This document shows positions 725-55,488 of a stretch of DNA of 64,000 bases, one piece after another. Under the pieces are notes generated by a model. The model worked only from the letters and a program-made list of their open reading frames with translations. It had not been told where the DNA came from and searched no databases. This DNA comes from Bdellovibrionales bacterium. GTDB lineage: Bacteria; Bdellovibrionota; Bdellovibrionia; Bdellovibrionales; UBA1609. The position numbers and the translations under genes are program-made. The stretch covers positions 832,001 to 896,000 of the forward strand of contig OZ241877.1 of assembly GCA_965203095.1 (NCBI GenBank), in the 5' to 3' direction. Within the stretch, counting starts at the first letter, position 1; every line of letters starts with the position of its first letter.

Positions 725-853
725 TTCCTGTAAATGTTCAGTATTTCGCTGACAGAATCATTTTTTAACCTTTTCAACTGTTTTTGTCCAAAGGCTGTTT
801 CATGAGGGTCCAAGGTATTTCCGTCCCGAAATGGAACAGCCTTTGGACAAAAA
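725..853 (+). repeat. Hairpin element family 1, copy A (stem 781-803/831-853, loop 804-830) plus a 34-nt flank shared with 13460-13493
   Basis: 23-bp inverted repeat with one T/G pair around GAGGGTCCAAGGTATTTCCGTCCCGAA; loop recurs four more times in the window. Confidence 0.9.
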
Positions 854-943
854 GCTAAGGAATAAGGTTTTTTAATAAATTTTTGTGGAAAAGATTGAGA
901 TTCCTGGATGACTGTTTGCACGGGATTGATTGGCTGTTAGTTT

Positions 944-1684
944 TTAAACAATTAATCCTCCAGTCACTTCTAACAAGGCACCGTTAATATAGCCGGCCTC
1001 CTCAGAGCACAAAAACAAACAGGCAGAAGAGACATCCTCCACTTGGCCAATCCTACTGGTGGGGATTTTTTCTATAAGGTTTTTAATTAAATCTTCCGGC
1101 ATATCCTTTAAAATATCTGTTTGAATAAGGCCGGGGACCAAAGCATTTACAGTCCAACCTTTCCGGCCCAATTCCCTGGCCCAAACTTTTGTTAAAGCGA
1201 GCACCCCTGCTTTAGAGGCAGAATAATTGCTTTGGCCAAAAAAGCCATAAAGTGCAGAGATGCTGGAAAGATTCACAATCCTTTTAAAAGATCCAGTAGT
1301 AAAATGAGGCAACAAATACTTTGTGCTTAAAAAAACGCCATTCAAATTAGTCCCCATGACAGAGGAATATTCTTCCCAAGTCATTTTTGATAAACTTCGA
1401 TCTTTAAGAATGCCGGCATTATTGATTAAAAAATCTATGGGTGCAGGCAAACCTCTTGTAGCATGAAAGCAGGACTCTTTTTGGGAGACATCCACTTGCT
1501 GAACGGATACTGAGGGGAAGTCCTGTTTCAACCGCTTTATACACTTTGGAGACTTTTCCCAAACCAGCACTTCCGCTTTAGCAAAAAAAAAGCTCTCCAC
1601 TATTTTCCGGCCAATCCCTTGCCCCCCACCTGTGACAAGAACCCGTTTGCCGGAAAAATCAAACTGAATATTGCCCATATTCAA
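944..1684 (-). CDS. fabG: 3-oxoacyl-ACP reductase-like short-chain dehydrogenase
   Basis: TGGGQGIG, NNAG, YSASK motifs. Confidence 0.8.
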   Translation of the reverse strand: MNMGNIQFDFSGKRVLVTGGGQGIGRKIVESFFFAKAEVLVWEKSPKCIKRLKQDFPSVSVQQVDVSQKESCFHATRGLPAPIDFLINNAGILKDRSLSKMTWEEYSSVMGTNLNGVFLSTKYLLPHFTTGSFKRIVNLSSISALYGFFGQSNYSASKAGVLALTKVWARELGRKGWTVNALVPGLIQTDILKDMPEDLIKNLIEKIPTSRIGQVEDVSSACLFLCSEEAGYINGALLEVTGGLIV

Positions 1685-1690
1685 TATCCT

Positions 1691-2875
1691 TTAGATAACA
1701 GCTCGCCCGGCCAGCTCTTTAGTAATGTTTTTTTCCAAAGCTTCGTTAGTCCCGCCACCAATTTCCAATAATTTAGCATCTCTCCAAAGCCTCTCCACAA
1801 TGTATTCGCCTACATAGCCATAACCACCCAATATTTGTATAGCTCGATCCGCTATATTTTTACCCGTCTTAGCGGATAAAAGTTTGACGCTGTCACAAGC
1901 CAAGCGATGCTTTTTTAAAGGCTCTGCTTCCACCTGACGAGCCGTCTCATAAGCATAAGTCCGGCTGGCCTGAAACTCCGCATAACTCCGGGCAATATGG
2001 CTTTGAATTTGACCAAAAGAGCGAATGCTTTTTTGAAAAGATTTTCTCTCAGAGCTATAATTATTCATAATACTTAAACATCTACTGGCAATCCCTAAAG
2101 ACATGCCAGCCAATGCCAACCTCTCCACCTCTAAGTTTTTCATCATTTGCTGAAGGCCATCTCCTTCATCCCCTACCCGATACTTAAGAGGGATCTCACA
2201 GTTGTCAAAAATCAATTCCGCAGTGGAGGAGGCCCTCATCCCTAATTTATCTTTAATTTGTTGGCCAACAGAAAAACCCTTAAAACCCTTTTCCACAACA
2301 AAAGTAGAGATTTTATCCTTAGTTTTAGCGTAAAGCAGACAAATATCACAAGGCTTTTTACCATCCGGACAGGCATTGGTGATCCACATTTTTCGCCCGT
2401 TTAAAATGTATTTATCGCCTTTTTTAACTGCATAACTTTTCATAGCTAAAACATCGGTCCCACAGTCCGGCTCCGACATAGCCATAGCTCCTATTTTTTT
2501 GCCACTGGAGAGATCCGGAAGGCACAGTTTTTTAAGATCTTCGCTGGCATTTCGGGAAATGTTGTAAGCACACAAAACACTGTGAGCTAAATAGGCCAAA
2601 CAAAAACCAGGGTCTGACCGGCTCAATTCTTCATGAACTAAAAGCATAGCTGTCAGATCCATATTGGATCCGCCCAAGCTCTCCTCTCGAACCAGCAGGC
2701 CCAACAAACCCGCAGGACCTAATTTTTGGAATAACTTAAGGTTAAATTTTTCTGCCCTATCCCCCTCTAAAGCTTGTGGTTCCAACTCTTTTTGTGCAAA
2801 AGAGGAGGACAGATCCCTTAAAGCTTTGTGTTCCGGAGTAGGCTCAAAGAGAGAAAAACTTTTCCAGTGGGACAT
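1691..2875 (-). CDS. Acyl-CoA dehydrogenase (isovaleryl-CoA dehydrogenase-like)
   Basis: GAMAMSEPDCGTD, NGRKMWITN, KLGMRASSTAEL, QILGGYGY, EIGGGTNE. Confidence 0.92.
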   Translation of the reverse strand: MSHWKSFSLFEPTPEHKALRDLSSSFAQKELEPQALEGDRAEKFNLKLFQKLGPAGLLGLLVREESLGGSNMDLTAMLLVHEELSRSDPGFCLAYLAHSVLCAYNISRNASEDLKKLCLPDLSSGKKIGAMAMSEPDCGTDVLAMKSYAVKKGDKYILNGRKMWITNACPDGKKPCDICLLYAKTKDKISTFVVEKGFKGFSVGQQIKDKLGMRASSTAELIFDNCEIPLKYRVGDEGDGLQQMMKNLEVERLALAGMSLGIASRCLSIMNNYSSERKSFQKSIRSFGQIQSHIARSYAEFQASRTYAYETARQVEAEPLKKHRLACDSVKLLSAKTGKNIADRAIQILGGYGYVGEYIVERLWRDAKLLEIGGGTNEALEKNITKELAGRAVI

Positions 2876-2988
2876 AATATGTTCCTTTTTTAAAACCTTA
2901 CCTTTTTAAAATAACATAAACTCTATAAGCCGTCCAGCTCTCTTTTTGCTATTTGCTAAATCCCAGCCAAAGGAGGAAAACTATTTTT

Positions 2989-4032
2989 TTAAAATGCGGT
3001 CTCCTCCTCCCAATCACCTTCAAAAAATTGCTCGATAGATATTTTATTCATGGCATAACCTAAGCAATCTGAGCGAGCAATGGCCTGATTTTTTGTAAGC
3101 ATAGAGGGGATAAAAGAGGATTTGACTGTTAAACGATTTTGATTGATAGAAAAATATTGAGTTAAAATATTTCTTCCCGCTTTATCTATAAGTTTTAATT
3201 TTTTAGAGTTTTTAATTTTCCCTAAGAATTGGCCCACAGGCAGTTTTTTAAAATTTAAATCTTCCAGTTCATTTATAAAACAAAAATGGCTATTTTTTAA
3301 AACCAGAGGAGAACGAAAAGAGAGCACAGAATCCTTATCTATGCGAATAACCGCAAAAGTGTAATAAATATGAGAAATTGTGATTTTATTATTCTCCCAT
3401 TGATCATCGGGATCTAAAAGAGTCTCTATCAGTTGAACTCCTTTTATTAGGCCCTGGGGGGTCCCTGGAAGACCGCACTCAATCACCACAGCCGGACATA
3501 TATCCGCTAAAGCTATAGATAAAACAGAATCAGGCTGAGTAAAATAAACAATATTGTTGGAAAAATTTTGAGCTATTTTTAAAGCCTTCTTCCCCTTTTG
3601 ATTGATACAGGCATAAAGAGGATTTTTCCCACTGTTGTTGTGAATATCCACCCCCAATTTAACTTTTTGATCTTGTGCGTATTGCAAGACGGATCGAGCT
3701 AAAGGGTGATTAAGAGATTTATGCCATATCCGGTTAAAATCTGGTTGATGGCTTAAATGACGCTGGCCCTTGGCCCCGGCCTCCGGATTGCCAATAAAGA
3801 AAATGAGACTCCTTGGCAAAGCTCTTCCCTGATATTTTTTTAAAATTTTTTGCAGGATAATAAAACCAGAAAACTCATTGCCATGAACCAAAACAGAAAT
3901 AAAAAGAGGTTGATCTTTTTCCCCCTTCAGATGGATTAGTGTTGGGCTATCAATAATTTTTGTTATTTCATGAGCTTTAATGCTCAATAAACCATCAGGG
4001 ATTTTCTTTATAATTTTTAAATGCTTATTCAT
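2989..4032 (-). CDS. Succinylglutamate desuccinylase/aspartoacylase family (M14-like) hydrolase
   Basis: VHGNE, DFNR, DIHNN and IECG zinc/catalytic motifs. Confidence 0.85.
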   Translation of the reverse strand: MNKHLKIIKKIPDGLLSIKAHEITKIIDSPTLIHLKGEKDQPLFISVLVHGNEFSGFIILQKILKKYQGRALPRSLIFFIGNPEAGAKGQRHLSHQPDFNRIWHKSLNHPLARSVLQYAQDQKVKLGVDIHNNSGKNPLYACINQKGKKALKIAQNFSNNIVYFTQPDSVLSIALADICPAVVIECGLPGTPQGLIKGVQLIETLLDPDDQWENNKITISHIYYTFAVIRIDKDSVLSFRSPLVLKNSHFCFINELEDLNFKKLPVGQFLGKIKNSKKLKLIDKAGRNILTQYFSINQNRLTVKSSFIPSMLTKNQAIARSDCLGYAMNKISIEQFFEGDWEEETAF

Positions 4033-4040
4033 CTTTTAAG

Positions 4041-5462
4041 TTATACTTTCCATTGATAAACAGGGAGGTTTTTTTGTTGATTTTCCCAATAGATCTGGAC
4101 CAACTTATCAAATTTTTTCCCAAATTTATGGATAAAGGCTTTTTGCCATTTTGCACCGGTTTGTCCGGAATGCACTCTGTTTTTTATTACATCATGGATC
4201 CAATAATCTGTTTGAGAGTTATCTAAAGATAAGTTTTTTATCTCTTCCCACACTAAAGGAATTAGTTTTTTTAAAATAAGCTGGCTAAGTTCATAAGTGT
4301 TCCCGTCCCACCAAGGGCCCTCTGCTGAAAGCCCCCACCGGGAGGCTCGATAAAAAAACTCCTCCAACTTTGAAAAAGCAATATAAGGGGTTTTGCCCTC
4401 TATGTTTTTTCTTATTAAAGAGATCAAACCGATAAAGAAAATAATGTTAGCTTGCATATCTACAAGGCTGGGGCCGGAAGAAGGAACTCTGTGCTCAATA
4501 CGAAAATGAGGAACTCCCTTTTTATCAAAGCCAACAAGAATGCGATTCCATCTCCAGATAGATCCATTGTGAAGCAGTAAATGTTCTAACCGCCCTTTTC
4601 CTCCTTTTTTTATTTCCGGAAGCAAAACAGGATGAAAAAGGTTTTGATCAAAAAGTTCTGACACGCATTGATTGACAAAACCATGACCTAAACCCACACG
4701 AGAAACCGGGGGATCGCTTGTAGATTTTAAAGAGATCACCTGCTCAAAAAGAGGGATGCGGGACTCCTCCCAAAGCTCCTTCCCGCGAATAAAAGGGGAG
4801 TTAGCACAGAGGGCACTCATTATAGGGCTGGCAATTAAAGCCGAATTGTAAAAATCTTTAGCCTGCAAATAAGCCACTTGAAGATGAATTTGTAAAGAAG
4901 TGGTTTCAGCCTCGTGCATAACACTGGAAGTTTCCAAACGGAGGCTATCTTTTCCTTGTATATGAATTTGAGCCTTGCTTTTTCTTAAAAAAAGGATGCG
5001 ATCATTTATGGCATAATATCTGTTTTGCGGAAAAATTTGATCCATCCCAAAAGCCACCTGTGTAATATCGGGATAAGTGCCAATAAACAAAACTCGCCCT
5101 TGATGAGCTTGAGTTGCTTGAGCACATTTCTTCCAATAAAATTGAAAATCCTCCTCTAAGTTTTGAGCTAAGTTGGCCTTCAGCTCAAAAGGCTTTCCGT
5201 TAATTTCAAAGTTAAATTTAGAAAGCTCTGGGGTAATGTGCGGGTCTTTAACAATCTTCAGCAGTTTCTCACTAAAAGCATACGGAAGGGCTTTTTTGTT
5301 GATAATCCAGCCTTCTGCTTCATAACCACAAACTAATGGGGAATTTGTAAAACGACCGTCAGAGATCCACTGCTGGAGCTGTTTTGTCTCTTCCTTAAGG
5401 TGGAGAGCAAACTCCTCTTCCTGTGCTTTTGTCCAATGAGATTGGCTGATTTCCTGACCCAT
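4041..5462 (-). CDS. Glutamate--cysteine ligase (GCS2)-family carboxylate-amine ligase
   Basis: GYEAEGW, ELSKFNFEIN, TSLQIHLQV, ANSPF, WEESRIPLFEQ, RIEHR. Confidence 0.85.
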   Translation of the reverse strand: MGQEISQSHWTKAQEEEFALHLKEETKQLQQWISDGRFTNSPLVCGYEAEGWIINKKALPYAFSEKLLKIVKDPHITPELSKFNFEINGKPFELKANLAQNLEEDFQFYWKKCAQATQAHQGRVLFIGTYPDITQVAFGMDQIFPQNRYYAINDRILFLRKSKAQIHIQGKDSLRLETSSVMHEAETTSLQIHLQVAYLQAKDFYNSALIASPIMSALCANSPFIRGKELWEESRIPLFEQVISLKSTSDPPVSRVGLGHGFVNQCVSELFDQNLFHPVLLPEIKKGGKGRLEHLLLHNGSIWRWNRILVGFDKKGVPHFRIEHRVPSSGPSLVDMQANIIFFIGLISLIRKNIEGKTPYIAFSKLEEFFYRASRWGLSAEGPWWDGNTYELSQLILKKLIPLVWEEIKNLSLDNSQTDYWIHDVIKNRVHSGQTGAKWQKAFIHKFGKKFDKLVQIYWENQQKNLPVYQWKV

Positions 5463-5509
5463 AAAAATAGCTCCTCTGTCTTTTAGTGTTAGGGTTTAAG
5501 CGGTAATTT

Positions 5510-6742
5510 TTATTGGACTGGCCCCACTGTAGATCCCATCACACGAGTTTTAATAGATACTGATAAACGAGACATTTTTTGACTCAACTCCAAAACATTT
5601 TCTTTTTCTAAATCCATAATCAAATAGCCAATCCACTTGTTGGTGGCTAAATATTGAGTTTTAATATTGACTCCCGATTCAGAAATCAATTTGTTGATCT
5701 GGCTTAAAACCCCCGGCTGATTTTTATGAACATTAGTCACACGAGTTGCGTTTTCAGGAACAGGGGGAGCTAAAAGCGAAGGGAAGTTGACAGAGTTTTG
5801 GACAGTCCCTGTTTGTAAAAAATCCTTCAGACTTTTAGATACTTCAAAAGCAATGGAGGCTTGGGCCTCTTCAGTGCTTCCTCCTATATGAGGGGTTAAA
5901 ACAACATGTTTCATTTTTTGCAAAGGAGAATTAAAAAGAGCAGAACTGGCACTGGGCTCTTCCGGAAAAACATCTATTGCCACCCCTGCAATTTGACGAG
6001 CCTCTAAAGCGGATTTAAGAGAGATCAGATCCACAACAGTTCCTCTGCTGGTGTTAATGAGAAAGCTGTTTTTTTTCATATACCCCAATTCTTTTTTAGA
6101 GATAAGTTTTTTAGTTTGTGGGGTTTCCGGAACATGAAGAGTCACAAAATCAGCCATCTTTAAAAGGTTTTTTAGGTGAAAACAGGGTTTAGAATTGCCA
6201 ATAGGAAGTTTGTTGACAATATCATAGTAAAGAACTCTCATCCCCAAAGCCTCTGCTAAAACACTTACCTGACTCCCAATATGCCCATAGCCTATAATGC
6301 CAAGAGTTTTCCCTCTCAACTCAAAACAACCTTCAGTAAACTTTTCCCACCGCCCCTCTCTCATATTTTGAAAATGATCAAAAAGGGATCGGGAAAGCCC
6401 AACCATTAAACCTATTACCATTTCTGCCACACTTCTGGTATTGCCAAAAGGGGCGTTAAAAACAGGAACTCCCCTTTTGCAAGCATTATCCAAGTCAATT
6501 TGATTGACCCCAATGCAAAAAGCCCCAATACAGTCTAACTGGGAATGAGACAAAACCTCTTTGTTAATAAAAGTTCGGGACCGGGTGCAAAGAACATTAA
6601 TATTTTTTAATTTTTGAATAAGCTCTTTAGTGGATGGGGCTTTCTTCAACCTTTCGATATTGAGGCCCAACTCCTGCAAGGTCTCTTCTGCCTGTTTGTG
6701 GATCTTTTCAGTTAAAAGAGCTTTAAGAGATAAAGATTTCAC
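5510..6742 (-). CDS. serA: D-3-phosphoglycerate dehydrogenase
   Basis: GAFCIG, NTRSVAE, GIIGYGHIG, TPHIGGSTEEAQ, C-terminal ACT domain. Confidence 0.95.
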   Translation of the reverse strand: MKSLSLKALLTEKIHKQAEETLQELGLNIERLKKAPSTKELIQKLKNINVLCTRSRTFINKEVLSHSQLDCIGAFCIGVNQIDLDNACKRGVPVFNAPFGNTRSVAEMVIGLMVGLSRSLFDHFQNMREGRWEKFTEGCFELRGKTLGIIGYGHIGSQVSVLAEALGMRVLYYDIVNKLPIGNSKPCFHLKNLLKMADFVTLHVPETPQTKKLISKKELGYMKKNSFLINTSRGTVVDLISLKSALEARQIAGVAIDVFPEEPSASSALFNSPLQKMKHVVLTPHIGGSTEEAQASIAFEVSKSLKDFLQTGTVQNSVNFPSLLAPPVPENATRVTNVHKNQPGVLSQINKLISESGVNIKTQYLATNKWIGYLIMDLEKENVLELSQKMSRLSVSIKTRVMGSTVGPVQ

Positions 6743-6840
6743 TTATAATTTCCTTTTAATGTGTTGATCTCAGTTGCTAAAAAGCCTGGGGAGCTTTTTA
6801 GCAAGCTTTTTCAAAACCGACTAAGTAGGACAAATAAAGT

Positions 6841-8235: not shown

Positions 8236-8238
8236 AAA

Positions 8239-8952: not shown

Positions 8953-8978
8953 AAAATAACTTTCTTGTTTTTTAGAAA

Positions 8979-10411: not shown

Positions 10412-10420
10412 ATCTCAACT

Positions 10421-11281: not shown

Positions 11282-11284
11282 AGC

Positions 11285-13459: not shown

Positions 13460-13576
13460 TTCCTGTAAATGTTCAGTATTTCACTGACAGAATTTATTTA
13501 AGTTTCTTTGCCTAAAGGTCCGTCCCATTTCGGGACGGCAATACCTTGGACCCTTATGGGACGGCCTTTAGGCAAA
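13460..13576 (-). repeat. Hairpin element family 1, copy B (hairpin 13507-13576, loop on the minus strand)
   Basis: Reverse complement of the 27-nt loop inside TTTGCCTAAAGG.CCGTCCCAT arms; 13460-13493 matches 725-758 at 33/34. Confidence 0.9.
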
Positions 13577-13608: not shown

Positions 13609-13702
13609 AGTTTGCCAAAAAGTTCCCCAAACTTTTTGGCTCCCGTGAAAACGGGAATCCAGAAAAGCCGGTTTTTGTGAAAACAGGGGTTCTTCCCGCA
13701 AA
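13609..13702 (+). repeat. Palindromic element family 2 (TCCCG-N-CGGGAATCC, dRS3/RPE-like), upstream of protease cassette 1
   Basis: Homologous to the reverse complement of 41070-41162. Confidence 0.85.
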
Positions 13703-13763: not shown

Positions 13764-13824
13764 AGTATTACAGCCCTTTTAAAATTGTGTGTTGTTTTAT
13801 CTCATTTTAAATAAGGAAGGCTTT

Positions 13825-16800
13825 ATGCCCCTTGGTTTTTTGCTTTTTCTTTTTTTTGCCTCTTCCGCCCTTCCTGAAAATGCAAAAATCCCTAAAGCCT
13901 CTTTAAATGAACTAAGCCTTCAAGTGGCAGGGCAAACTCAAAAAACTCTTACAAAAAGTCTTAGCCAGTATATCGCAAAAGCTCTTAAGCCAAAATTAAG
14001 GAAAAGGCTTTATGCTCAGGCAGAAAATCCTCCTGGCAGTTCACCTTTTTTTGAAAAAAGACTTCATCACAAAACACAAACAAATCCCTCTCCCCCCTGC
14101 CATATCAATAGGGAATGTTTAAATCAGTTGCACAATAAGCTCTTAAACAAAAAGGATGAAGATAGCATACATTTTAACTGCCAATGGGCTTATAGGAACA
14201 ATCATCTCTGTTGTAAGGACCCTACGGGCTGTTTCCTCTCTTATGCTACAGATGAGATTAAAGAGGAGTTAGATGATAAGCTCAAGACTCTTGTTGTATC
14301 TCAAGCTTGCTCTCAGGAGGGGATTTCTTCTTTAAACTCTTTTTTGTCTGACTTTCAGGGGGATTTTTGCGAAAAGGGAGTTCGGCATTGTAAAGAGTTT
14401 TGTGAGCATACACTTAGGGATTTTCAGCAAAGTTTTAGGGCTTGTTTTTCCATAAAAAAATCGGTTTCTATAGATGAGGCATTGAGGAGAGCCAGGCAAG
14501 ATCCCTTATGTCACAGGGAAATGAGCAAAGTATCTCAAATTTATAAAGAATTGAGTTTTGATTCTTTGAGTGGTTTTTATAAAAATTTGAAGTGGGAGTC
14601 TTTGTTGAGTTTTCGTGAGGATCTTTCGTTTGAGGATTTTGTGGATTGTGAGCGGGTGAGGGAGGGGAAGGGGGATGAGAGTTTTAAAAGCTCAGCTTTT
14701 TCTATGTGTCAGATGGCAGGAACTATAGAATCAGGAAGGAAACTTCTTGCAAGGGCTAAGGCAAACAGGGAAGGTTCAGAGGAGGAGGAAAACTCAGAGG
14801 AAAACTCAAATGATGAAGATTCTCATCCTGTGAGTGCTACTAGTGGAAATTTTGCGGGCGGAGTTTATCAGCCTTCGGCTTTAGTTCCTACTCCTACAAA
14901 AATTTTTCCTGATGAAGGAAAAGGCTTGCTGGAAGAAGACAAAAAGGATTTGAGTAGGAGAGAGCTTTCCTCTGTAAAAGAACCTTCATTAAAAGAACCT
15001 TTACTTAAAAGCCCAGCAAGTTCTGTTTTAGAAAAAGGCTTATCTTCTACAAAAGCTATAGTGGGAAAAACCCAAGAAAGCTCTCAATCAAATCCTCAAT
15101 CTATTAAAAATCCTCAATCTATTAACAAGGCCAAAGCTCCTTTTCCCCCTCAAGCTGTTAATTCACTGGGATCAGGGGCAAAAATTCCTGAAGGAGCTTA
15201 TAAAGCCCCCTCTTATGAAGATTATTTAGGAGGGAGGTCCCCTTCTTCAAAAATATCTTCTTCAGAAAAGGCGTGGAGAGAATTGTTTGAAGACTCTCCC
15301 CTATCTAAAGAACCCCAAGGTTTTTTTGAAAAAACAGAGGATTTTTGGTTTCATTTTGTTGGGAAACCCCGTCAATACTTCAGTAAGTTGTGGTTTTCTA
15401 AGCTTAGGGGTGGCCCACAAGTGGTCTATCAGATGCTGTTTCAATCGGTATCAGCCCCTCAATTAGAGCCTTTGTTTGTTCAGGAACATCAAAAGTATCT
15501 TCCTCAACCTGTTTTTAAAAGCTATGATCTTCTGAGAGGAAAACCCGCTGGTCTTTTAGTTGAAATCAAATACAAATTGCCCAAGCTTTGTCTTCAGTTG
15601 AGAGGTCCTAAAAAATGTTTCCCAAAAAGAGAGTTTAAGTTAAAATTACAGGTTAAAGAGGATAAAAATATTCCTACCTTTTGCCATTCTGTAAGTAAAG
15701 AGGAAGGGAGGCTTGTAATAGAGGCGGATGATAAAAATGAAGAGCCTTGTTTTTTTAATAGTGAGGAGTTTTTTTCATCAAGGGATTCTCATAAGGTTCA
15801 TAAAAATTCCTCTCAAGATTTTTTTGAAGGCTCAGTTTTTAAGTTGATAGAGTTTCCCACAAGATTTATAGAGCCTGTGGATTTGAAGGAGTATATTGAT
15901 ATTGGTGAGCTGACAAACATTAGTTATCCTTTCAATGTTTTGCTTTCTTTTTCTGGTTTTAATGATCGGGTAGTGAAGGATATTGATGGTGAAAATTCCC
16001 ATGTTCCGGTTCGTATAAACATTGTGGAGTTGAAAAAGGCTTTTTTGCCAGATATGTCTATTCTTCGGTCGATGAGGAATGGGGAAAGAGCTACTCCGGG
16101 GAAGTCTATTTTAAAGCTATTTCGTGCAAGGGAGAAAGAAATCATTTTGCCCAATATGTCTGTTTTAGAAAACAGAGTATCTTGGAAGAAGGGCTTAGGG
16201 AATTGTGAAGATAATGTTGAGGCTTATTTTAAGACAAAGCTTTCGTCCGCAAATATTTTTTGCGTCAATGCTTTAGATCTTTTGCCGTTAAAAATAGGCT
16301 GGACGAGGATTAAAGGAGCTGAAGGAGTTGAGAAAATTGTAGGGGTTAAAGGAACTAAAGAGGCCGAAAGGATTAAAAGAGCAGAGGAAAATCATAAAAG
16401 ATGCATTTTAAGTGAGGAGGAAGCCGAGATAAATGCCAAAATCCCAAACTGGGGGGAAAGCAGTAAAAATGGCTATAAAATGACAGATTTGGAAAAAGTT
16501 CAAGCCTTTGCTTCTTCAGAGGAGATAAGAATTTTTGTGCCCACAGTGTTTCCCATTGCGGAGATCAGCTCAGAGGTTTTAAGGACTACAGTAGGTAAAG
16601 ATTTTGTTATTGGGAGTTGTGATACTTATACAACAGCTCAAGAATATTCGTCTTTTCAAAAAGATTCTGTTCCCGATTTAGATTTTTGCCGGGAGATTTA
16701 TGTTCATCCTAAACTTTATCATCGTTATCAAACTTATGGTTTGTTAAATGACCTTCAACTTTTAGAGGATGAAAGATTTAAAGGCGATTTTAGCAAACTT

Positions 16801-17004
16801 ATTGTTGTGGTTCCAAGGGATTATTTTGTCTACCATGGTATTCAAAGGGAGGGGGAGCATGAACCAGAAGTTTATGGCTGGACCCCTTTGCCTCATTTTA
16901 AACAGACGACTGGGGGGGTATTTGTCCTATTCTGGTTGGGGTTTTCTTGGAGGAATTACTTTTATTCGGGAGGATCAGTTGGATCGAGGGGTTTTAAGCC
17001 ATGA
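13825..17004 (+). CDS. Giant secreted Cys-rich metalloprotease-like protein, N-terminal part (frameshifted at G7 16912-16918)
   Basis: SD AAGGAAGG before ATG 13825, signal peptide, CCxDPxxC domain; paralogous to 37856-41017 (QSVxAPQ.EP, YDLxxGKPAG). Confidence 0.8.
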   Translation: MPLGFLLFLFFASSALPENAKIPKASLNELSLQVAGQTQKTLTKSLSQYIAKALKPKLRKRLYAQAENPPGSSPFFEKRLHHKTQTNPSPPCHINRECLNQLHNKLLNKKDEDSIHFNCQWAYRNNHLCCKDPTGCFLSYATDEIKEELDDKLKTLVVSQACSQEGISSLNSFLSDFQGDFCEKGVRHCKEFCEHTLRDFQQSFRACFSIKKSVSIDEALRRARQDPLCHREMSKVSQIYKELSFDSLSGFYKNLKWESLLSFREDLSFEDFVDCERVREGKGDESFKSSAFSMCQMAGTIESGRKLLARAKANREGSEEEENSEENSNDEDSHPVSATSGNFAGGVYQPSALVPTPTKIFPDEGKGLLEEDKKDLSRRELSSVKEPSLKEPLLKSPASSVLEKGLSSTKAIVGKTQESSQSNPQSIKNPQSINKAKAPFPPQAVNSLGSGAKIPEGAYKAPSYEDYLGGRSPSSKISSSEKAWRELFEDSPLSKEPQGFFEKTEDFWFHFVGKPRQYFSKLWFSKLRGGPQVVYQMLFQSVSAPQLEPLFVQEHQKYLPQPVFKSYDLLRGKPAGLLVEIKYKLPKLCLQLRGPKKCFPKREFKLKLQVKEDKNIPTFCHSVSKEEGRLVIEADDKNEEPCFFNSEEFFSSRDSHKVHKNSSQDFFEGSVFKLIEFPTRFIEPVDLKEYIDIGELTNISYPFNVLLSFSGFNDRVVKDIDGENSHVPVRINIVELKKAFLPDMSILRSMRNGERATPGKSILKLFRAREKEIILPNMSVLENRVSWKKGLGNCEDNVEAYFKTKLSSANIFCVNALDLLPLKIGWTRIKGAEGVEKIVGVKGTKEAERIKRAEENHKRCILSEEEAEINAKIPNWGESSKNGYKMTDLEKVQAFASSEEIRIFVPTVFPIAEISSEVLRTTVGKDFVIGSCDTYTTAQEYSSFQKDSVPDLDFCREIYVHPKLYHRYQTYGLLNDLQLLEDERFKGDFSKLIVVVPRDYFVYHGIQREGEHEPEVYGWTPLPHFKQTTGGVFVLFWLGFSWRNYFYSGGSVGSRGFKP

Positions 17005-35346: not shown

Positions 35347-35482
35347 TTTTGCCCCTGAAAAACCTCGGCCTTTTATCGCATAAGCAAAAGCCAGCGGTGA
35401 GGGTCCAAGGTATTGCCGTCCCGAACAAGCTGGACTTTTGCTTATGCGATCTATCAAATGTAGACTTTTTCATGGGTGATTA
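35347..35482 (+). mobile_element. MITE-like element carrying family-1 hairpin copy D (35375-35450)
   Basis: Imperfect terminal inverted repeats (GCCCCTGAAAAA / TTTTTCATGGGTGATTA); hairpin identical to 55381-55456. Confidence 0.75.
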
Positions 35483-36685
35483 GATAGAGAGTTCTACAGG
35501 AGCATTTTCAAGACTCCTTTGAGTGAAAAGGAGCCTTCCATCACAGGCAAAACCCAAACCGCTCCAATCCACTTTATTTAGTTTTTCGGCGGCTTTTTCA
35601 ACATCTGTCCTGGGATCTTTTGGAAAAAGAGCCATAACAGATCCATCATATTCCAAAGATTTATGTGTAAAAAAGGGTTTGGGATTGCGGGTTTTGCAAT
35701 TGACATAAACACGAGGGCCTTTTCTATCGCAATATTTCCTCCCCCACTCCCACCAGTTATTTTCATTAAAAGATCTGATTCTACGGCTCAAAAGTTCTGT
35801 TTTATGAGGCAGTAGACTTTTGTCTTTTTGATTATAGATCATTCTCCGTGTTTTTTTTGTGCTGGCAGTAAAAGAGCACACCATATTTGCATTCCCTCGG
35901 TTTTCATTTGCAAATATATGGTCAGCCCCGCTTACAGCTCCCACTTTCACTTCAAATTGATCGGATAAATTCCCACTTTTTTTGGATCCAAACCAAAGTT
36001 GACCTTGGTGGTGATGGAACCAGCCCCACCCGCCGGAAAGCTTATGATTCTTTCTTCCTTTCTCCCATCGCCAGATAGCACAGTTGGGGCTATAACCGGA
36101 AAACACCGGCAAATCGCCCAATTCGCGATAATAGCTAATAGAGCCTTTTTTATAAAGATCACTATTTAATATTTTAGCACTGGTGGCTTTTAAAAAGTCG
36201 CGAGGAGTAATAAAGATCAGCTCCCCAGCCTTGTTTAAATGCTGAATGCACTTTGCGATAAAAAAAAGATAAAGGTTAGTTCTTCTATCAAAGCCTTCCA
36301 TGGGCAATATTTTTTTGGTTTCAGGCAATATGTCCTGAAAACGAACATAAGGGGGATTGCCAATAATGGTATTAAATTTATTGGCAATGGGGTAGGAAAA
36401 AAAATCACAAAAAACAATCTTGTTTTTAAGCTTTTTGGCTATTGAGGAATGATTCAACAAAGTTTTATCTAACTCAATACCTAAAATCTTGTTTTTTTGA
36501 ACAAAGGTTTTATTATTCAAATAATTTAAAAAAGCACCATTCCCACAAGCCGGCTCCAACAAAGCCCCTTGATTTTGACGCAATAAAAGCATTTCCCGCA
36601 CAATATTATTGGGAGTAAACACCTGTCCTAAGTGTTTTATGCTTTTGGATTTTTTAGCATAAGCCTCAGTTTTATGGTTTGGCAT
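35480..36685 (-). CDS. Orphan N6-adenine DNA methyltransferase (gamma class, M.HincII/HindII-like); ORF track start 36814
   Basis: GQVFTP, LEPACGNGAF, NPPY, NLYLFF, GELIFITP; no adjacent endonuclease. Confidence 0.88.
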   Translation of the reverse strand: MPNHKTEAYAKKSKSIKHLGQVFTPNNIVREMLLLRQNQGALLEPACGNGAFLNYLNNKTFVQKNKILGIELDKTLLNHSSIAKKLKNKIVFCDFFSYPIANKFNTIIGNPPYVRFQDILPETKKILPMEGFDRRTNLYLFFIAKCIQHLNKAGELIFITPRDFLKATSAKILNSDLYKKGSISYYRELGDLPVFSGYSPNCAIWRWEKGRKNHKLSGGWGWFHHHQGQLWFGSKKSGNLSDQFEVKVGAVSGADHIFANENRGNANMVCSFTASTKKTRRMIYNQKDKSLLPHKTELLSRRIRSFNENNWWEWGRKYCDRKGPRVYVNCKTRNPKPFFTHKSLEYDGSVMALFPKDPRTDVEKAAEKLNKVDWSGLGFACDGRLLFTQRSLENAPVELSI

Positions 36686-36846
36686 TAGCTTGTGGTTTTT
36701 TTTACCTTTGAGGTCACTTGCTGTCATAAGATATTTTTGCTTTGAGCTGTTTCTTAGCCATTTTTTTATAGCTTTATTTAAAAATAATAGCAAATACTCT
36801 TTCCTGCAAGTCAAACAAGCCCATAGTCAAGAGGAAGTAATGATGT

Positions 36847-43132: not shown

Positions 43133-43291
43133 AAAAGGCAGTTTAATGGGTTTTTTACTAAAAATCCATATTTTGTTTGATTCGTGGTTATTTTCTTAAA
43201 TTCCTACTTTTCTTACCCTGTTTTGACCAGATATTTCAACTGTGATCAGTATAAATTGAGTTGATACTGAAAAAATATCCTCTTAAGCACT

Positions 43292-43410
43292 TTTGCCTAA
43301 AGGCCGTCCGGTGATGGTCCAAGGTATTGCCGTCCCGAAATGGGACGGACCTTTAGGCAAAGAAACTGAAGAGTCCCTTGTAAATTATAGAGGTTTTTCA
43401 CAGGTGATTA
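43292..43410 (+). repeat. Family-1 hairpin copy C (43292-43361) with downstream terminal motif
   Basis: Loop GATGGTCCAAGGTATTGCCGTCCCGAA, B-type stem, ends GAGGTTTTTCACAGGTGATTA. Confidence 0.88.
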
Positions 43411-44047: not shown

Positions 44048-44139
44048 AAATTATATTTTCGCTTTGAGCCTTCACAGGTTCAAACTCAACATATTTGAGG
44101 GCCGACACATAGGCCGACCCTCAAAAGCAGTTGTTTTCA

Positions 44140-44459
44140 GGATAGGCGATAAGCCGGATTCTGTCTGCCTTTTTCCTACTAAAAAAGGGAAACGGTGATT
44201 CCTCTAAGAGTTTTGTTGCCAAAACCCTTTTGCGATCAACCCGAAGGCACTGCCTCTTGGCTCAGGATAGCCTTCCTATTTGATCTCGCTCCGGGCAGAG
44301 TTTAGCTGATTTCACTCCAGCACCGGTAAAAACCGGCCGGATATTCTTTCTGTTCCACTGGTCCGCGCCTTTCGGCGGAAGGCGGTTAGCCTTTGCCTTG
44401 CCAAAGGAGTCCGGACTTTCCTCTTTGCCCTTATGGGCAAAGCCACCGTTTGCCTATCC
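44140..44459 (-). ncRNA. rnpB: RNase P RNA (class A)
   Basis: Minus strand has GAGGAAAGTCCGGACTCC near the 5' end and ACAGAATCCGGCTTATC near the 3' end; P1 helix GGATAGGC/GCCTATCC. Confidence 0.95.
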
Positions 44460-44520
44460 AAAAAAAGCCTATCAGAACATAGCCAAAAAAGCAACCAAAA
44501 CATCTCCCACTTCTAAAGGC

Positions 44521-46344: not shown

Positions 46345-46505
46345 CTTTGATTCATGGGTATTTAAGAGCTTTTTTTTCAATATTTCTGCATATAGAGCCT
46401 CAAAAAGCCTATTTTGATTGAATTTTAACAAGCAAAGTAAGAAAAATAAAAGTTGCTTTTGGACTTTGTCAATGATAGACAAGGGAAACTTTTAAAAAGG
46501 CAGTT

Positions 46506-47387: not shown

Positions 47388-47398
47388 AGGGAGTCGAT

Positions 47399-48043: not shown

Positions 48044-48045
48044 TT

Positions 48046-48774: not shown

Positions 48775-48790
48775 TTAAAAACCAGAGGAG

Positions 48791-49354: not shown

Positions 49355-49356
49355 TT

Positions 49357-50061: not shown

Positions 50062-50844
50062 AGCTCTATTTTGGAGAAAAAGACTTAACCATTTAAGCTT
50101 TTCAGCTCTTTTTTTAAAAGGTTTTATCGCGGTTAAGCTTTTTTGAATTGCGGACTTCAATTCCTTAAGACCCTCTTGTTTTGAGTTAAAAAAAGAAAGC
50201 TTATCTTGCAAGTCATCTGCGATTTGATAGGCTATTCCCATATTTTGGCTATAGTTTTGAAGAGCCTTTTTTTCTTTATGATTTTTCCCCCATAAAAGAA
50301 AAGGCCCTAAAACAGAGGCGGATATAAGAGAGCTGGTTTTTAATTGGATCATTTTTAAAAATTGAGATTTTGTGGTAAAATTCTCCCTTAAATCTAAAGC
50401 CTGCCCACTCATCAAGCCACTAAAACCCACTTCGGAGAGAAACAGATCCAAAACTTGTGCCCTCTTCTCGTCAAAAAGAGGATCTTTTAAAAAAGAAAAA
50501 CTTTGGACAAAAAGACAAGTTCCAGCCAAAAGAGCTATGTCTTCTCCAAAAACTAAGTGATTGCACTTTTTTCCTCGGCGGGTTTTGCTGTCATCCATAA
50601 GAGGCAGATCATCATGAATAAGGCTGGCACAATGGATCATTTCCACAGCCATGGCCCAAGGGAAAATATCTTGAGGTTTTTTTCCAAAAACATGAGCAGA
50701 GGCAAAACACAAATGAGGGCGAAAGCGAGAGGCTTTTCCAAATAAACTGTAAAATAAAGATTTTTTTAAAAGCTTTTGAGATGGCAATAAGGCTTTTGAG
50801 AAAAGTTTTTGCAGGTGCTTTTTAAAAACCGATTCAAAATCCAT
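50032..50844 (-). CDS. ispA: Polyprenyl (farnesyl) diphosphate synthase
   Basis: SLIHDDLPLMDD, RRG, GQALD, YQIADD. Confidence 0.9.
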   Translation of the reverse strand: MDFESVFKKHLQKLFSKALLPSQKLLKKSLFYSLFGKASRFRPHLCFASAHVFGKKPQDIFPWAMAVEMIHCASLIHDDLPLMDDSKTRRGKKCNHLVFGEDIALLAGTCLFVQSFSFLKDPLFDEKRAQVLDLFLSEVGFSGLMSGQALDLRENFTTKSQFLKMIQLKTSSLISASVLGPFLLWGKNHKEKKALQNYSQNMGIAYQIADDLQDKLSFFNSKQEGLKELKSAIQKSLTAIKPFKKRAEKLKWLSLFLQNRALKFSKFSLR

Positions 50845-50894
50845 AAACTTTTACATAAGGAAAAATTAAAAGCATCTCTTTAAAATCAATTTTT

Positions 50895-51137
50895 TTAATC
50901 CTCATTTTCAGAAGAAGGCTCAAAATCTTCTGTCTCTGGTTCTCCCGTCTCTTCATTGATTCGGACTAACTTTTGAACGGACTGCTCTGCTGACTTCAGC
51001 TCCTCTCGGCATTTTTTAATCAGTTGTAAAGCTTTTTTAAAAGTCTCAATGGATTCTTTTAAACCAAGCTCCCCACTGGACATTTTCTCACTTATTTTTT
51101 CCAACTCTTTCAAGTTTTTTTCAAAATCCATATTCAC
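50895..51137 (-). CDS. xseB: Exodeoxyribonuclease VII small subunit
   Basis: FEKNLKELEKI...LKESIETF; between xseA and ispA. Confidence 0.93.
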   Translation of the reverse strand: MNMDFEKNLKELEKISEKMSSGELGLKESIETFKKALQLIKKCREELKSAEQSVQKLVRINEETGEPETEDFEPSSENED

Positions 51138-52327
51138 TCCTCCTTTTCTGTGACAACAGCTACAGCTTGCCCCTTTAAGAACTTTATATGAATACTGTCT
51201 TTAATTTTCAAGCCTTTTGTGTTATGCAGAATTTCCCCCTCAGCATTTGTGACAATGGAAAAGCCCCTTGTCATTACTGTTTGAGGGTTAAGGGAATGCA
51301 AAACCTGCTCTAAGTTTTTGAGCTGAACTTTAGATTTTTCAAAAACCATTTTAAGATTCTGGTTTAACTGTGAACTGATCTCGTCTAATTTTTGAGAGCT
51401 ATCCCTGAGCAGTCTGTTGGGGCGAACAAGACTCTTTTCTAAAGAGGAAATCCTGTCTTTTAAAAAACTCAGCTGAAGTTGAAGATTTTGGCTTATATGT
51501 TTTTTTATCCTTTGGAATTTTGTCAATAAGTCCTGAGCATTTTGAGTCACAAGCTCTGCGGAGGCTGAGGGTGTCGGTGCTCTTAAATCCGAGACAAAAT
51601 CACAGATAGTGAAGTCAATCTCATGCCCCACGGCGGAAATTATAGGAACAGAATGTTCCGCAATAGCACGGGCCAGCTTTTCGTCATTAAAAGCCCACAG
51701 ATCTTCCATAGATCCTCCACCTCTTCCAATGATTAAAACATCTAAAGGCAGTTTTTTAGAATCCGACAGTGCCTTTAACAAACTAACTGGGGCCTCCGCC
51801 CCTTGCACTAAAGCGGGAATCACAGTCACTTTTAAGTTTTTAAACCGCCGATTCAAAATTTGCAAAATATCACGAATGGCCGCCCCTGTGGGAGAGGTAA
51901 TAACAGCTATATGGCGAGGGAAGAGGGGGATAGCTTTTTTTCTCTCCGGATCAAATAGCCCTTCTTTTTTCAATTTTCTTTTTATGTCTTCAAATTCTTT
52001 CTGCAAAAGGCCAGAGCCTACAATTTCCATCTCAGAACATAAAATTTGGTAATCCCCCCTGGGGGGATAAGAGCTGATTTGCCCATAAACCAAAACCTCT
52101 TCACCTGTTCGTGGGCGAAAAGAGAGTTTTTGATTTTTCCCTCTAAACATAGCCCCCTTAATTTGTGCCTTTTCATCCTTTAAACTAAAATACCAATGGC
52201 CAGAGCTATGGGCGATAAAGTTAGACAATTCCCCTTTTAACCAAAGGGCAGGGAATTGAGATTCCAAACAAGTTCGTATCTGATGAGAAACTTGCGAAAC
52301 AGTTAAAATATTTTTATCTTTATCCAT
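51134..52327 (-). CDS. xseA: Exodeoxyribonuclease VII large subunit
   Basis: SGHWYFSLKD, TSPTGAAIRD, RGGGSMEDLW, GHEIDFT, RAPTPS. Confidence 0.97.
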   Translation of the reverse strand: MDKDKNILTVSQVSHQIRTCLESQFPALWLKGELSNFIAHSSGHWYFSLKDEKAQIKGAMFRGKNQKLSFRPRTGEEVLVYGQISSYPPRGDYQILCSEMEIVGSGLLQKEFEDIKRKLKKEGLFDPERKKAIPLFPRHIAVITSPTGAAIRDILQILNRRFKNLKVTVIPALVQGAEAPVSLLKALSDSKKLPLDVLIIGRGGGSMEDLWAFNDEKLARAIAEHSVPIISAVGHEIDFTICDFVSDLRAPTPSASAELVTQNAQDLLTKFQRIKKHISQNLQLQLSFLKDRISSLEKSLVRPNRLLRDSSQKLDEISSQLNQNLKMVFEKSKVQLKNLEQVLHSLNPQTVMTRGFSIVTNAEGEILHNTKGLKIKDSIHIKFLKGQAVAVVTEKEE

Positions 52328-52401
52328 AATATTTTAGGTTCAGGGGTATTTATATTATACATATCAAATTAAATCAACTGAGGTAAATAAAAAAAGAAGG
52401 A

Positions 52402-53529
52402 TTAAAAACCTAACTGCTGACGGATGAGTTTTTGACGAATTTTGAATAGGCTGGATTTTTGTATTTCAGAAACAAAATAAATGCTTTGTATTCTTTCAAA
52501 AGGAAGAACTTTAGAGTTAAAAGTTCTGACTAATTTTTGAATTTTTGTAATATTAAAATCAGAGCTGACCAAAGCCAACTGAGCACCCTGTCGCCTGTCA
52601 GGCAGAGCTGTAAGATAGCCTTCTTTTTTAAAGCGGAGTGACAATTCTTCCAATAAAACCGAAAGCTTTTGCAGATCTACTCTTTCCCCAAGAATTTTTA
52701 TTTCCTCTTCTCTCCTCCCTTTAATCAGCAAAAAATTTTTATTTAAAACCGCTTTGTCTGGTAATTTTAGCCAACCTTTAGAATCTTTAGGATCAAAAAG
52801 TTTGTTTTTTTGAAGGTCAAAACTCTTAGTGAGAAGGCTGGAACTTTTTATTTTGATTTGTGAAAATATTTGCTTTATTTCTATATGCTTAAGAACTTTC
52901 ATTTTTGGAAATTTATTTTTATTTAAAGAGGAAAGGCTGGCTGAAGCCACCTGAGAGCTGGCCTCTGTCAAGCCATAAGAGATCAAAATGGGCCAACCTA
53001 AGGCTCTGCCTTTTTTATAAAGCAATGGAGACAAACTATCCCCCCCCACTATTACAGCTCTTAAGCTTTTAGGGGCTTTAATTTTATTTTGGACCAAGTC
53101 ATAAATTTGAGCCGGAACTAAAGAGCTTAAACTGATTTTTTTTTCTTTTAACTGCTTTTGAAAAGAGTGAGCCTGCCATTTGCCCCGGCTCTTATAGAAG
53201 GAAAAGCCTCCGCAAAAACTTCGAGCTAAAATAGACAAGCCCGCTATGTGAAACAAAGGAAGAGATACTAACCAACGATCCTTTTTGTGAGTTTGAAGGT
53301 TTTTATTAACCGCATGGGCTGAACTGAGAATAGCGGATTTTGAAAGCAAACAAATCTTCCCTCTATTAGAAGTAAAAAGATAAATATGAGATTTTAAAAA
53401 AGGAAGTTTTTTAGTTAGCTTAGCCAATGCCTTTGCCTGAGGGTGCCGGGGATTAAAAAAGTAATGGCTATGAGGGCTTTCCCAGTCAATTTTATGATTA
53501 TTTATATAAAGAGTTGTTTTTCTTCTCAT
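52402..53529 (-). CDS. menE: o-succinylbenzoate--CoA ligase (short, divergent)
   Basis: SLPLFHIAGL, SLVPAQ, SYGLTEASSQ; men cluster context. Confidence 0.8.
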   Translation of the reverse strand: MRRKTTLYINNHKIDWESPHSHYFFNPRHPQAKALAKLTKKLPFLKSHIYLFTSNRGKICLLSKSAILSSAHAVNKNLQTHKKDRWLVSLPLFHIAGLSILARSFCGGFSFYKSRGKWQAHSFQKQLKEKKISLSSLVPAQIYDLVQNKIKAPKSLRAVIVGGDSLSPLLYKKGRALGWPILISYGLTEASSQVASASLSSLNKNKFPKMKVLKHIEIKQIFSQIKIKSSSLLTKSFDLQKNKLFDPKDSKGWLKLPDKAVLNKNFLLIKGRREEEIKILGERVDLQKLSVLLEELSLRFKKEGYLTALPDRRQGAQLALVSSDFNITKIQKLVRTFNSKVLPFERIQSIYFVSEIQKSSLFKIRQKLIRQQLGF

Positions 53530-53532
53530 AAA

Positions 53533-54471
53533 TCAGATCCATCGCACCCAAGGTTCTTTTTTTAAAAAATCACCAAAGCCAAAACCAAAACCCGCTGGCG
53601 GAATAAAGCCTTTAGAGTTTTCTGCTAAGTGATAGGCTTTTATTTTGTTAAGCCCAGAAAATACAAAAGCCCCTGTCTCAAAAAATCGAGGGTAAAGTTT
53701 ATAAAATTGGCCCGCCCAAAAACCAGCAATTGCTTGGCCAAAGAGATGATCCTTACTGTGAGTGAATATAACTCTCTTCCATCGGGAAAAGGAGGGGTTT
53801 TTAATTAAAAGATCTATTCGATCTCTTGAGGGTTTAACAATTTTTATTTGAGCTGAGGGGAGAGAAAGCCAATCCTCTGCAAAAAGCCGATGATCTGATC
53901 CTTTAAAAAGATCTTTTTCTAAAAGAGGATCTTCAATAAAATCTATATTGGATTTTAAAAATTTAAGTGGGGCTTTCCACTCTCGCCAACTTCTGCCATT
54001 TAGATCTAACCTCCATTTCACCCCTGGGATCTGCTGGTTTAAATTTTTTAAATGTTGAATTTGCTCTGCCTTTTTATGAGGTTGAAGTTTGACTTTAATA
54101 ATAGCTGGATCCCATTTTAAATTTGTTTTCTTAAAACAAGATAGATCTTCAATTAAAAAGTGACTTTTAGGAATTTTTAAACCAAAAAATAAACTTCTTT
54201 TTTGAGATCGTGCTTTAGCGTCTAAAAAAGCATTGTGCCGAGCGATTAAAAACCTAAGGCTAAGTTGGCCTTTTTGAATTTGCCTTAACTGCTGAAGTAA
54301 AGGAGCTTCTTTGTTAAAAGATGGCCAAGGCAAAAAATCGCTATAGCCTTTAAGGTTAGATCCAAAATCAAAAGATAAAAGAGCACCTTTTAATGAAGCC
54401 CCCCTCTCCCTTTGAAGTTTGTAAGGGGAAATAAAAAGCTTAAAAAATTTTGGTTTTGAAAAAAAAGTCAT
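53533..54471 (-). CDS. menC: o-succinylbenzoate synthase (divergent enolase superfamily)
   Basis: KVK, RLDLN, FIEDP, IVKP; lies between menA and menE. Confidence 0.75.
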   Translation of the reverse strand: MTFFSKPKFFKLFISPYKLQRERGASLKGALLSFDFGSNLKGYSDFLPWPSFNKEAPLLQQLRQIQKGQLSLRFLIARHNAFLDAKARSQKRSLFFGLKIPKSHFLIEDLSCFKKTNLKWDPAIIKVKLQPHKKAEQIQHLKNLNQQIPGVKWRLDLNGRSWREWKAPLKFLKSNIDFIEDPLLEKDLFKGSDHRLFAEDWLSLPSAQIKIVKPSRDRIDLLIKNPSFSRWKRVIFTHSKDHLFGQAIAGFWAGQFYKLYPRFFETGAFVFSGLNKIKAYHLAENSKGFIPPAGFGFGFGDFLKKEPWVRWI

Positions 54472-54483
54472 GCTTTTTATCTC

Positions 54484-55362
54484 TTAAATCCAAAGCCCAA
54501 CAATCCAAAGCCCACTATAAACTGTGTAAAGTAAAGAGCAAAGGGCCAAATAAGAATTGTATTTTGAGGAAGAAGCTTGGCTCGCTATAAAGTAAATTAA
54601 AAGGGCAGAAAAAGGCATAACAAAAAAACTCAAAGCTCCGGATTTTAAACCCTGCCCCATCCAAAAAAAGCAAATCAAATAAATAAAAGCCTGAGCTATA
54701 GTGAGAAAAAACAAAGCATGGGTCCGGCCATACAAAGTCACAAAATGCCGCCGGCCACCCGCCCGATCTTCTTTTTCATCTCTTAGATGATTGATGAGCA
54801 AAAGGCTTAGTGACCAAAGCCCGCAAGGGATTCCTAAATAAATTATATTCATATCCCAGTGAAGGCTTTGCAGGTAATATGTTCCAAAAACAGCTATAGG
54901 GCCAAAAAAAAGAAAACAAAACAATTCTGAAAGGCCCAGCCTTAGAAGGGAAAACTTTGTCCCCGTATAAAGATAAGCTAAAACACAAGATACAATACCT
55001 AAGATCAAAATGGGCCAACCCCCTCTTAAAATGAGAGGAACACCTGCAAGCACAGCCAACACAGAAGTAAAAATAGCCCAGTTTTGTATTTGAGAAAAAG
55101 AGAGCTTTCCCGTTTGGCTGAGTCGCTTAGGGCCTTTTCTCAAATGACTATCTACTCCCTGCTTATAATCTAAAGCATCATTAAAAAGGTTGGCTGAAAT
55201 TTGAATACAACTGGCGGAAAGGGCTGTCCAAAACAAAATATCCTTTTTTAAAAATCCGGTTTGATAAAATGCCCAAGCACTGCTCATAGCGATAGGCGAT
55301 AAAATAGCTGGAAGGGTTTTCAGCCTTGCCCCTTCAATAAAAAAAACTATATATTCGCCCAT
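54484..55362 (-). CDS. menA: 1,4-dihydroxy-2-naphthoate prenyltransferase
   Basis: RLKTLPA, NLFNDALDYKQGVD, RKGPKR, NHLRD..D; multi-TM. Confidence 0.92.
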   Translation of the reverse strand: MGEYIVFFIEGARLKTLPAILSPIAMSSAWAFYQTGFLKKDILFWTALSASCIQISANLFNDALDYKQGVDSHLRKGPKRLSQTGKLSFSQIQNWAIFTSVLAVLAGVPLILRGGWPILILGIVSCVLAYLYTGTKFSLLRLGLSELFCFLFFGPIAVFGTYYLQSLHWDMNIIYLGIPCGLWSLSLLLINHLRDEKEDRAGGRRHFVTLYGRTHALFFLTIAQAFIYLICFFWMGQGLKSGALSFFVMPFSALLIYFIASQASSSKYNSYLALCSLLYTVYSGLWIVGLWI

Positions 55363-55488
55363 GAAAAACCTCTATCTCTTATCGCATAAGCAAAAGCCAG
55401 CGGTGAGGGTCCAAGGTATTGCCGTCCCGAACAAGCTGGACTTTTGCTTATGCGATCTGTCAAATGTAAGCTTTTTCACGGACGACTA
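55352..55488 (+). mobile_element. MITE-like element carrying family-1 hairpin copy E (55381-55456)
   Basis: Terminal inverted repeats TATTCGCCCATGAAAAA / TTTTTCACGGACGACTA in TA-rich flanks. Confidence 0.8.

Follow-up and report, generated by a model that had tools for sequence, protein, structure and literature searches.

A conserved folded junction carried by IS5-type miniature transposable elements in a Bdellovibrionales genome

Introduction

Integron attC sites combine variable stems, an extra-helical base on one strand and a variable tip, and the repeat described here resembles them in these features. MITEs, or miniature inverted-repeat transposable elements, have as their defining marks, in one published account, inverted ends, target duplications and a transposase-free core (PMC3184786). 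MITEPsy1, a mobile IS5-type MITE of Pseudomonas syringae, is described in part of its report as short and non-coding, with IS5-like ends, a 4-bp target duplication and movement in trans (PMC3189936). The NTS/dRS3 repeats (CGTC-1 repetitive extragenic palindromes, REPs) and Ssn offer a strand-specific hairpin site in mosaic arrays, as given in excerpts of two reports (PMC11893778, PMC3733652), and the former states that SsnA binds NTS only as single-stranded DNA, on one strand. Here we examine a window of 64,000 nt from a Bdellovibrionales bacterium (contig OZ241877.1, positions 832,001-896,000; assembly GCA_965203095.1), in which five hairpins, copies A to E, share a nearly constant core. The genome, of 1.80 Mb and 38% GC and 90% complete by markers, is labelled G000; other G numbers denote other genomes and L numbers denote loci.

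We propose that copies C, D and E are MITEs that would be moved in trans by an ISRm12-like transposase, and that all five copies carry a module serving as a strand-specific single-stranded DNA site. Taken as a whole, we rate this proposal at slightly better than even. Its carrier is, very probably, a new MITE family of a known type, and the conserved junction is a real addition to that ordinary carrier.

Results

The initial annotation, made from the letters of the window, described a structured element with a 27-nt loop. The core is present at all five positions it gave, with zero or one mismatch, and 100 shuffles produced no match. All five cores lie outside open reading frames (ORFs) of at least 100 aa, in keeping with the intergenic placement first described, and copies A, D and E have folding z-scores between -4.2 and -8.3, whichever strand is folded. 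The stems differ and yet pair as had been described, although their grouping had to be corrected: in coordinate order, stems are shared by B and D and by C and E, not by B and C and by D and E.

Across the nine genomes that carry it, the conserved feature is not the plain 27-nt loop first proposed; it is a folded junction with a replaceable tip. The junction comprises, in order, a tandem G-A step, a 3-bp helix, an asymmetric internal loop (TCCAA opposite GT) and the tip, the fixed letters of the internal loop being TCCAAG/CGTC. The inner helix covaries, with G-C, T-A or A-T as its middle pair. Tips range from 5 nt to hairpins of about 30 nt, the long ones occurring in G098, G099, G104, G105 and G111, and G109 retains the asymmetric loop and helix only. 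A covarying structure had been claimed from the five copies and is borne out in a larger set of 37 copies picked so that their arms are diverse: both partners change in 16 of 18 pairs, 90.2% of cells pair, no slid register comes near, and none of 500 shuffles reaches the score. This score is not a probability, since it comes from related sequences that also served to derive the structure. Within subfamilies, arms pair better with their own partner than with a neighbour's in 64 of 77 cases.

REPs and REPINs are recognised by a conserved short stem and a variable spacer. The module has the reverse arrangement, as was rightly noticed from the window, its stems varying around a fixed junction. These stems nonetheless vary less than the linkers, with 52 changes in 184 columns compared with 72 in 124. 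A bulged A that was thought to be kept is not constant in identity: among the 108 copies recognised in G000, a single extra base in the 3' arm occurs as A 27 times, as T 23 times, as C nine times and as G twice, and it is absent in 22, while 16 further copies are unpaired and nine show other patterns. Counted over 149 distinct arm pairs, an extra base of any kind stands 10-12 nt from the junction in the 3' arm of 51, in the 5' arm of one and in neither arm of 77.

Five copies in the window was a correct count, but the unit is larger than a hairpin and far more numerous genome-wide. G000 has 81 cores within three mismatches, 43 of them exact, and a looser pattern raises the number to 108, of which 13 fall inside ORFs, mostly short ones, by a crude gene call. 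Inverted repeats of about 15 bp bound many of the elements, with the core mid-element and TA..TA duplications flanking. IS5-type ends are found on both sides of 49 of the 108 cores, on one side of 24 and on neither side of 35. The ends are spaced 124-260 bp apart in 43 of 45 pairs. Of the 43 pairs whose ends lie no more than 300 bp apart, 23 have an exact 6-8-nt target duplication, as compared with 10.6% of 1806 cross-element pairs. The suggestion that a transposase might be involved survives in the form of a link to an IS5-type enzyme, although the carrier itself proves to be a conventional MITE of the IS5 family, bounded by inverted ends and flanked by duplicated target sites.

Terminal inverted repeats are present in copies C, D and E; these three are non-coding MITEs with IS5-family ends, and they are likely to be moved in trans. 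The clean case is copy E (55354-55486, + strand), a 133-bp MITE with both inverted ends in the menB/menA gap, set between unstranded 6-bp target duplications at 55348-55353 and 55487-55492. Copy D (43260-43408, + strand) is a 149-bp MITE in the pdxH/rny gap, with a degenerate left end and 8-nt flanks that differ by one letter. Copy C (35348-35480, + strand), a 133-bp MITE in the gap between a tauE-like and a methylase gene, has two degenerate inverted ends and a target duplication that is not intact, and on its right side it directly adjoins the methylase ORF (35480-36814, - strand) at the stop codon. Terminal repeats are absent from the two remaining hairpins with the junction module: copy A (781-853, + strand; core 804-830) lies behind a fabG-like gene, and copy B (13507-13576, - strand; core 13529-13555) occupies the gap between pstS and an unknown ORF.

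Run X6, from another sample, bears on mobility. One of its contigs (depth 5) has site E empty, its flanks joined with a single copy of the duplication, and another (depth 4.3) skips site D. No empty-site joint was seen for copy C in runs X5-X8. All nine congeners have a menB-menA gap free of the element, but they are not closely enough related for the gaps to be counted as empty sites.

A candidate parent was found in G105, where three covariance-model matches (L278, L281 and L282) lie directly behind DUF772/DDE_Tnp_1 genes. The elements there measure 1580-1608 bp and have the same ends as the MITEs, with a reading frame that is intact in two and broken by a stop in one. Against the IS5-family model NF033578, which has a cut-off of 275 bits, their 445-aa transposase reaches 460.6 bits. 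The hairpin sits between the stop codon and the right end, the stop codon itself falling within the left arm and the core lying on the sense strand. By sequence, this ISRm12-like IS5 element is likely to be the parent of the G000 MITEs. ISRm12-like IS5 elements of NF033578, with proteins 43-46% identical to that of the G105 parent, share its end sequence and 6-bp TA..TA target, and ISRm12 and a Leptospira IS5 show like ends with a 6-bp duplication.

The module is not a general property of these relatives. ISRm12 and other plasmid-borne relatives, at 42-46% protein identity to the G105 parent, share the ends and lack the module, as do sister elements in G105 and G110. G017 (L295 and others) provides a natural control, with at least 15 copies of an IS5 relative at 58% identity that has the same ends and no module. 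Unlike the parent, the G017, ISRm12, Leptospira, Microvirga and Mesorhizobium elements end soon after the stop codon. A thinly sampled tree of 11 proteins has a 100/100 branch, one side of which is made up of the three rows that bear the module, each of them from G105. The multi-copy insertion sequences of G000 were rejected as the parent, as their ends differ, and no transposase relatives turned up in viral contigs.

Rearranged copies occur as well. A MITE in G105 (L395) is made up of a pair of right ends that meet at the hairpin, the core of L090 is inverted relative to its subfamily, and some of the poorly paired copies in G000 have arms from two subfamilies. Separately, the left IS5 end in L298 and L319 contains an extra 33-nt hairpin, absent from L294, which resembles the long module tips.

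Covariance models place the module in 8 of 108 other genomes of the family (seven in a first pass), all in one other genus (8 of its 15 genomes), and in none of nine genomes of its own genus. The exact 24-nt core gave no match in GTDB genomes, in IMG/VR or in 40 sampled relatives, and model R1 gave none in an order sample of 150. Model R2 returned four single weak matches in a phylum sample of 150, which were rejected, the best lying inside a coding gene. Two metagenome matches to a gapped pattern, one in overlapping reading frames and one on a Planctomycetota contig (L103) without the stem, were attributed to chance, and a plasmid blastn search likewise gave chance matches only. The first impression that the element fits no familiar family is upheld in Rfam, searched both by gathering threshold and by E-value, where the window matched RNase P only and the 3' end of L278 had a best E of 1. 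No description of the element was found in the literature, subscription journals and ISfinder excluded.

The module also occurs outside the IS5 context. Among the 35 G000 copies without IS5 ends, 17 have an NTS-like repeat within 170 nt. In G111, L389:3620-5010 holds a tandem array of six units, each combining a module hairpin with an NTS repeat, spaced 239-261 bp apart in a BIME/NIME-like manner, and the copies inspected in G099, G107 and G109 contain the module alone. From these copies beside NTS, in arrays and alone, we infer that the module predates its association with IS5.

Candidate partner proteins were sought among several classes. A HUH gene flanked by the motif, which had been put forward, was not found: Y1 genes are absent from G000, G104, G099 and G111, and the Y1 loci of G105 and G110 lack the module (four of eight checked with model R2, all eight with R1). 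G111 has an intact 97-aa Ssn-like GIY-YIG gene (L324:1190-2300) that is flanked by many NTS repeats and without the module, with a homolog in G101. G000 has 31 matches to the SRM consensus of NTS, and no Ssn-sized gene was found there. GIY-YIG genes of 236-621 aa were rejected as partners; the module does not flank them, and two UvrC-sized loci are merely near a copy. We note GIY-YIG frames of 236-283 aa at 374349 and 378992 of G000 contig C1 and in G110, G104, G099 and G111, at one to five per genome. Integron integrase was found in 0 of 109 genomes in a search in which no positive control responded, and reverse transcriptase (PF00078) is absent from G000, with controls positive in three.

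Mismatches in the stems are uneven between strands. On the core strand, G-T outnumbers A-C by 29:12 in G000 and by 38:9 in the relatives. Unpaired linkers have no strand bias, which makes plain strand-biased mutation unlikely. The copies ignore the direction of host transcription (19 vs 20). Among the 149 tips, seven, which belong to G107 and G109, match one of three forms of the GCGNAGC mini-hairpin. According to an excerpted report, a tetraloop form related to GCGNAGC is far less stable in RNA, and mini-hairpin motifs occur in single-strand origins and in the N4 promoter (PMC13037366). Orientation-blind copies and mini-hairpin tips together give a modest tilt towards DNA over RNA.

Other features of the window and genome were recorded. 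A second small repeat lies beside copy A (722-755, unstranded), with 18 genome copies by the pattern used and a related copy at 13462-13490 beside B. An NTS/CGTC-type short palindrome is located upstream of copy B (13639-13660, unstranded), and palindromes of this type are found at 13639, 37730, 41111 and 60052. A 1071-aa ORF (13789-17004, + strand) matched nothing in NCBIfam or Pfam under the cut-offs applied, and the RNase P RNA (44134-44461, - strand) is of class A, at 206.5 bits.

G000 also has other repeats. A 1.9-kb insertion sequence encoding a DDE_Tnp_1 protein of about 600 aa, which we take to be IS1634-like, occurs four times on C1 (175258-177179, 971121-973042, 1227585-1229518 and 1350952-1352888), three of the four copies lying between duplicated segments of 1.2-3.3 kb. 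Identical 1.14-kb insertion sequences with TA flanks, presumably IS630-like, are found at C1 684548-685689 and seven other places; as all eight are identical, they have been recently active. Contig C2 (1-17191) consists entirely of a tandem repeat of about 1109 bp in some 15 copies that are 98-100% alike, with no 80-aa frame in its first 2.3 kb. C2 may be a concatenated small circle, or foreign to the G000 genome.

Discussion

The known systems nearest to these elements share some of their features and differ in others. The G000 elements share with MITEPsy1 the short, non-coding form, the IS5-like ends, the presence of a target duplication and, probably, movement in trans; the duplication is 6-7 bp here, the ends here are ISRm12-like, and the excerpted description of MITEPsy1 contains no conserved internal junction (PMC3189936). 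CIR and RPE repeats are likewise intergenic palindromic repeats of 100-150 bp with conserved structure, but CIR, as a review describes it, is built from a pair of arms with a linker, contains a GANTC site and lacks terminal repeats, and it is by this description only that we set it apart (PMC2229807). The NTS system shares with the module the strand-specific hairpin site and the mosaic arrays, and NTS repeats neighbour many copies; however, NTS has a conserved stem and a free loop in the excerpts cited, whereas the module has a free stem and a fixed junction and does not match the SRM pattern (PMC11893778, PMC3733652). The C-loop RNA motif has a CAA strand closed by a U-A pair, and the five accepted examples shown in another report close with U-A (PMC4551918), while the module closes with G-C. 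For attC, no cassette arrays or attC end boxes were seen, and the junction sequence of the module is fixed. Hammerhead, kink-turn and SECIS were dropped, their required core letters or bulge geometry being missing by eye.

On our preferred reading, the module likely acts as a strand-specific single-stranded DNA site. We propose a model in which one IS5 lineage acquired the module at its right end, and this lineage would then have entered the ancestry of G000 and amplified. An ISRm12-like transposase, intact in G105, would mobilise the MITEs in trans. New subfamilies may arise through exchange at the hairpin, by which two right ends are fused, arms are swapped or the core is inverted. In the least certain step, the folded core strand would serve as the binding site of a protein from the host or the element, much as SsnA reads NTS hairpins, and such binding would keep the junction fixed while the stems drift.

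A number of observations weigh against this reading. With respect to the strand, the G-T:A-C excess is significant in only two of four classes when split by shared and private changes (22:5 and 7:0, as opposed to 2:3 and 14:6), and the strictest pairwise count gives wobbles of 23:13, not significant by estimate, alongside 18 compensated and six other changes. There is no replichore bias (45:63, p 0.10; 93 of 300 permutations; skew weak), and of 71 copies judged by local skew, only 26 have the core strand as the G-rich one, contrary to a lagging-template model. The commonest tips, at least 109 of 149, are not mini-hairpins, and short tips can pair in another register too. With respect to the fold, 17 of the 108 G000 cores have mismatched arms, and the inner helix is broken at its outer pair in 16 of 102 cores and at its middle pair in 12 of 102. 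The 35 cores without IS5 ends include A and B. The empty sites at E and D are each seen in a single low-depth contig (depth 4-5), and the joint at D is imprecise, 212 nt vs 149. G000, at its 90% completeness, yielded no matching IS5 transposase or remnant, the best related-protein profile reaching an E of 0.3, and the position of the module on the transposase sense strand in the parent fits an RNA role equally well. No protein was found to follow or adjoin the module in the Y1, Ssn-like and reverse transcriptase searches: Y1 transposases occur in two of six tested genomes, never beside the module, and an Ssn-like gene is present in one of nine module-bearing genomes, so it does not track the module.

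With its stop codon in the left arm and the core on the sense strand, the parent invites an RNA interpretation, in which the module is a 3' structure of the transposase mRNA that affects stability, termination or protein binding and is inherited, and perhaps expressed as a short transcript, by the MITEs. The G-U wobbles and tandem G-A pairs are RNA-like, and when both strands are folded as RNA the core strand has the greater stability in 9 of 11 cases; folded as DNA, however, it also has the greater stability, in 10 of 11. The copies are oriented at random relative to neighbouring genes, sister IS5 elements function without the module, Rfam holds no match, and the copies inspected in G098, G099, G107, G109 and G111 have no transposase gene alongside. 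We regard an RNA role as unlikely. It is also known that template switching perfects quasi-palindromes, and the module could be a neutral passenger whose core stays alike through recent amplification and whose pairing is restored by switching between arms. There are many near-identical copies, chimeras and broken inner pairs persist, and 18 of 60 stem changes are compensated, as expected from arm copying. Yet such copying would erase a 3' extra base that stands at a fixed distance in unrelated stems, and the junction has been kept in nine genomes of two genera despite the replacement of stems, tips and ends. The covariation of the 3-bp inner helix and the slower change of stems than of linkers also speak against neutrality, which we find improbable.

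The NTS-like repeats close to nearly half of the IS5-endless copies raise a further alternative, that the module is a REP/NTS-like element in its own right, spread mainly by a single-strand nuclease of Ssn or RAYT type, with IS5 ends as a later, secondary vehicle. The array in G111, a genome that has an Ssn-like gene, is in line with this, as is the resemblance of the fixed junction letters to the tags at the foot of NTS hairpins in the SRM consensus, so far as the excerpted source gives it (PMC11893778). Against it, none of the five window copies matches that consensus and no module stands beside the ssn-like gene or the Y1 genes. Ssn-like genes are present in 4 of 109 family genomes, one of them module-positive and none of them G000, and most G000 copies have at least one IS5 end. 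This origin strikes us as quite improbable, a shade more so than neutrality.

It is tempting to extend the preferred reading, that of a single-stranded DNA site carried by MITEs, one step further. The junction could be a portable strand-specific signal in single-stranded DNA, an inside-out counterpart of NTS or attC, that would be read by a protein, hops between carriers such as IS5 ends and NTS arrays and seeds MITE subfamilies by fusing element ends at its hairpin. It would then belong to a widespread class of folded cores in IS5-type MITEs. We offer this extension tentatively and consider it rather doubtful.

A MITE's ends are taken to be all that a DDE transposase requires, and if the ends alone suffice, the fixed, folded interior of these elements is left unexplained. 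Here an intact IS5 element carries the source of that interior at its right end, so that a transposase and a full element are at hand, along with sister elements that lack the module and with naturally occurring variants of the fold. Selection on the inside of a MITE thereby becomes a directly testable question. Should the module truly be a single-stranded DNA site, it would point to a new strand-specific DNA-binding or cutting protein.

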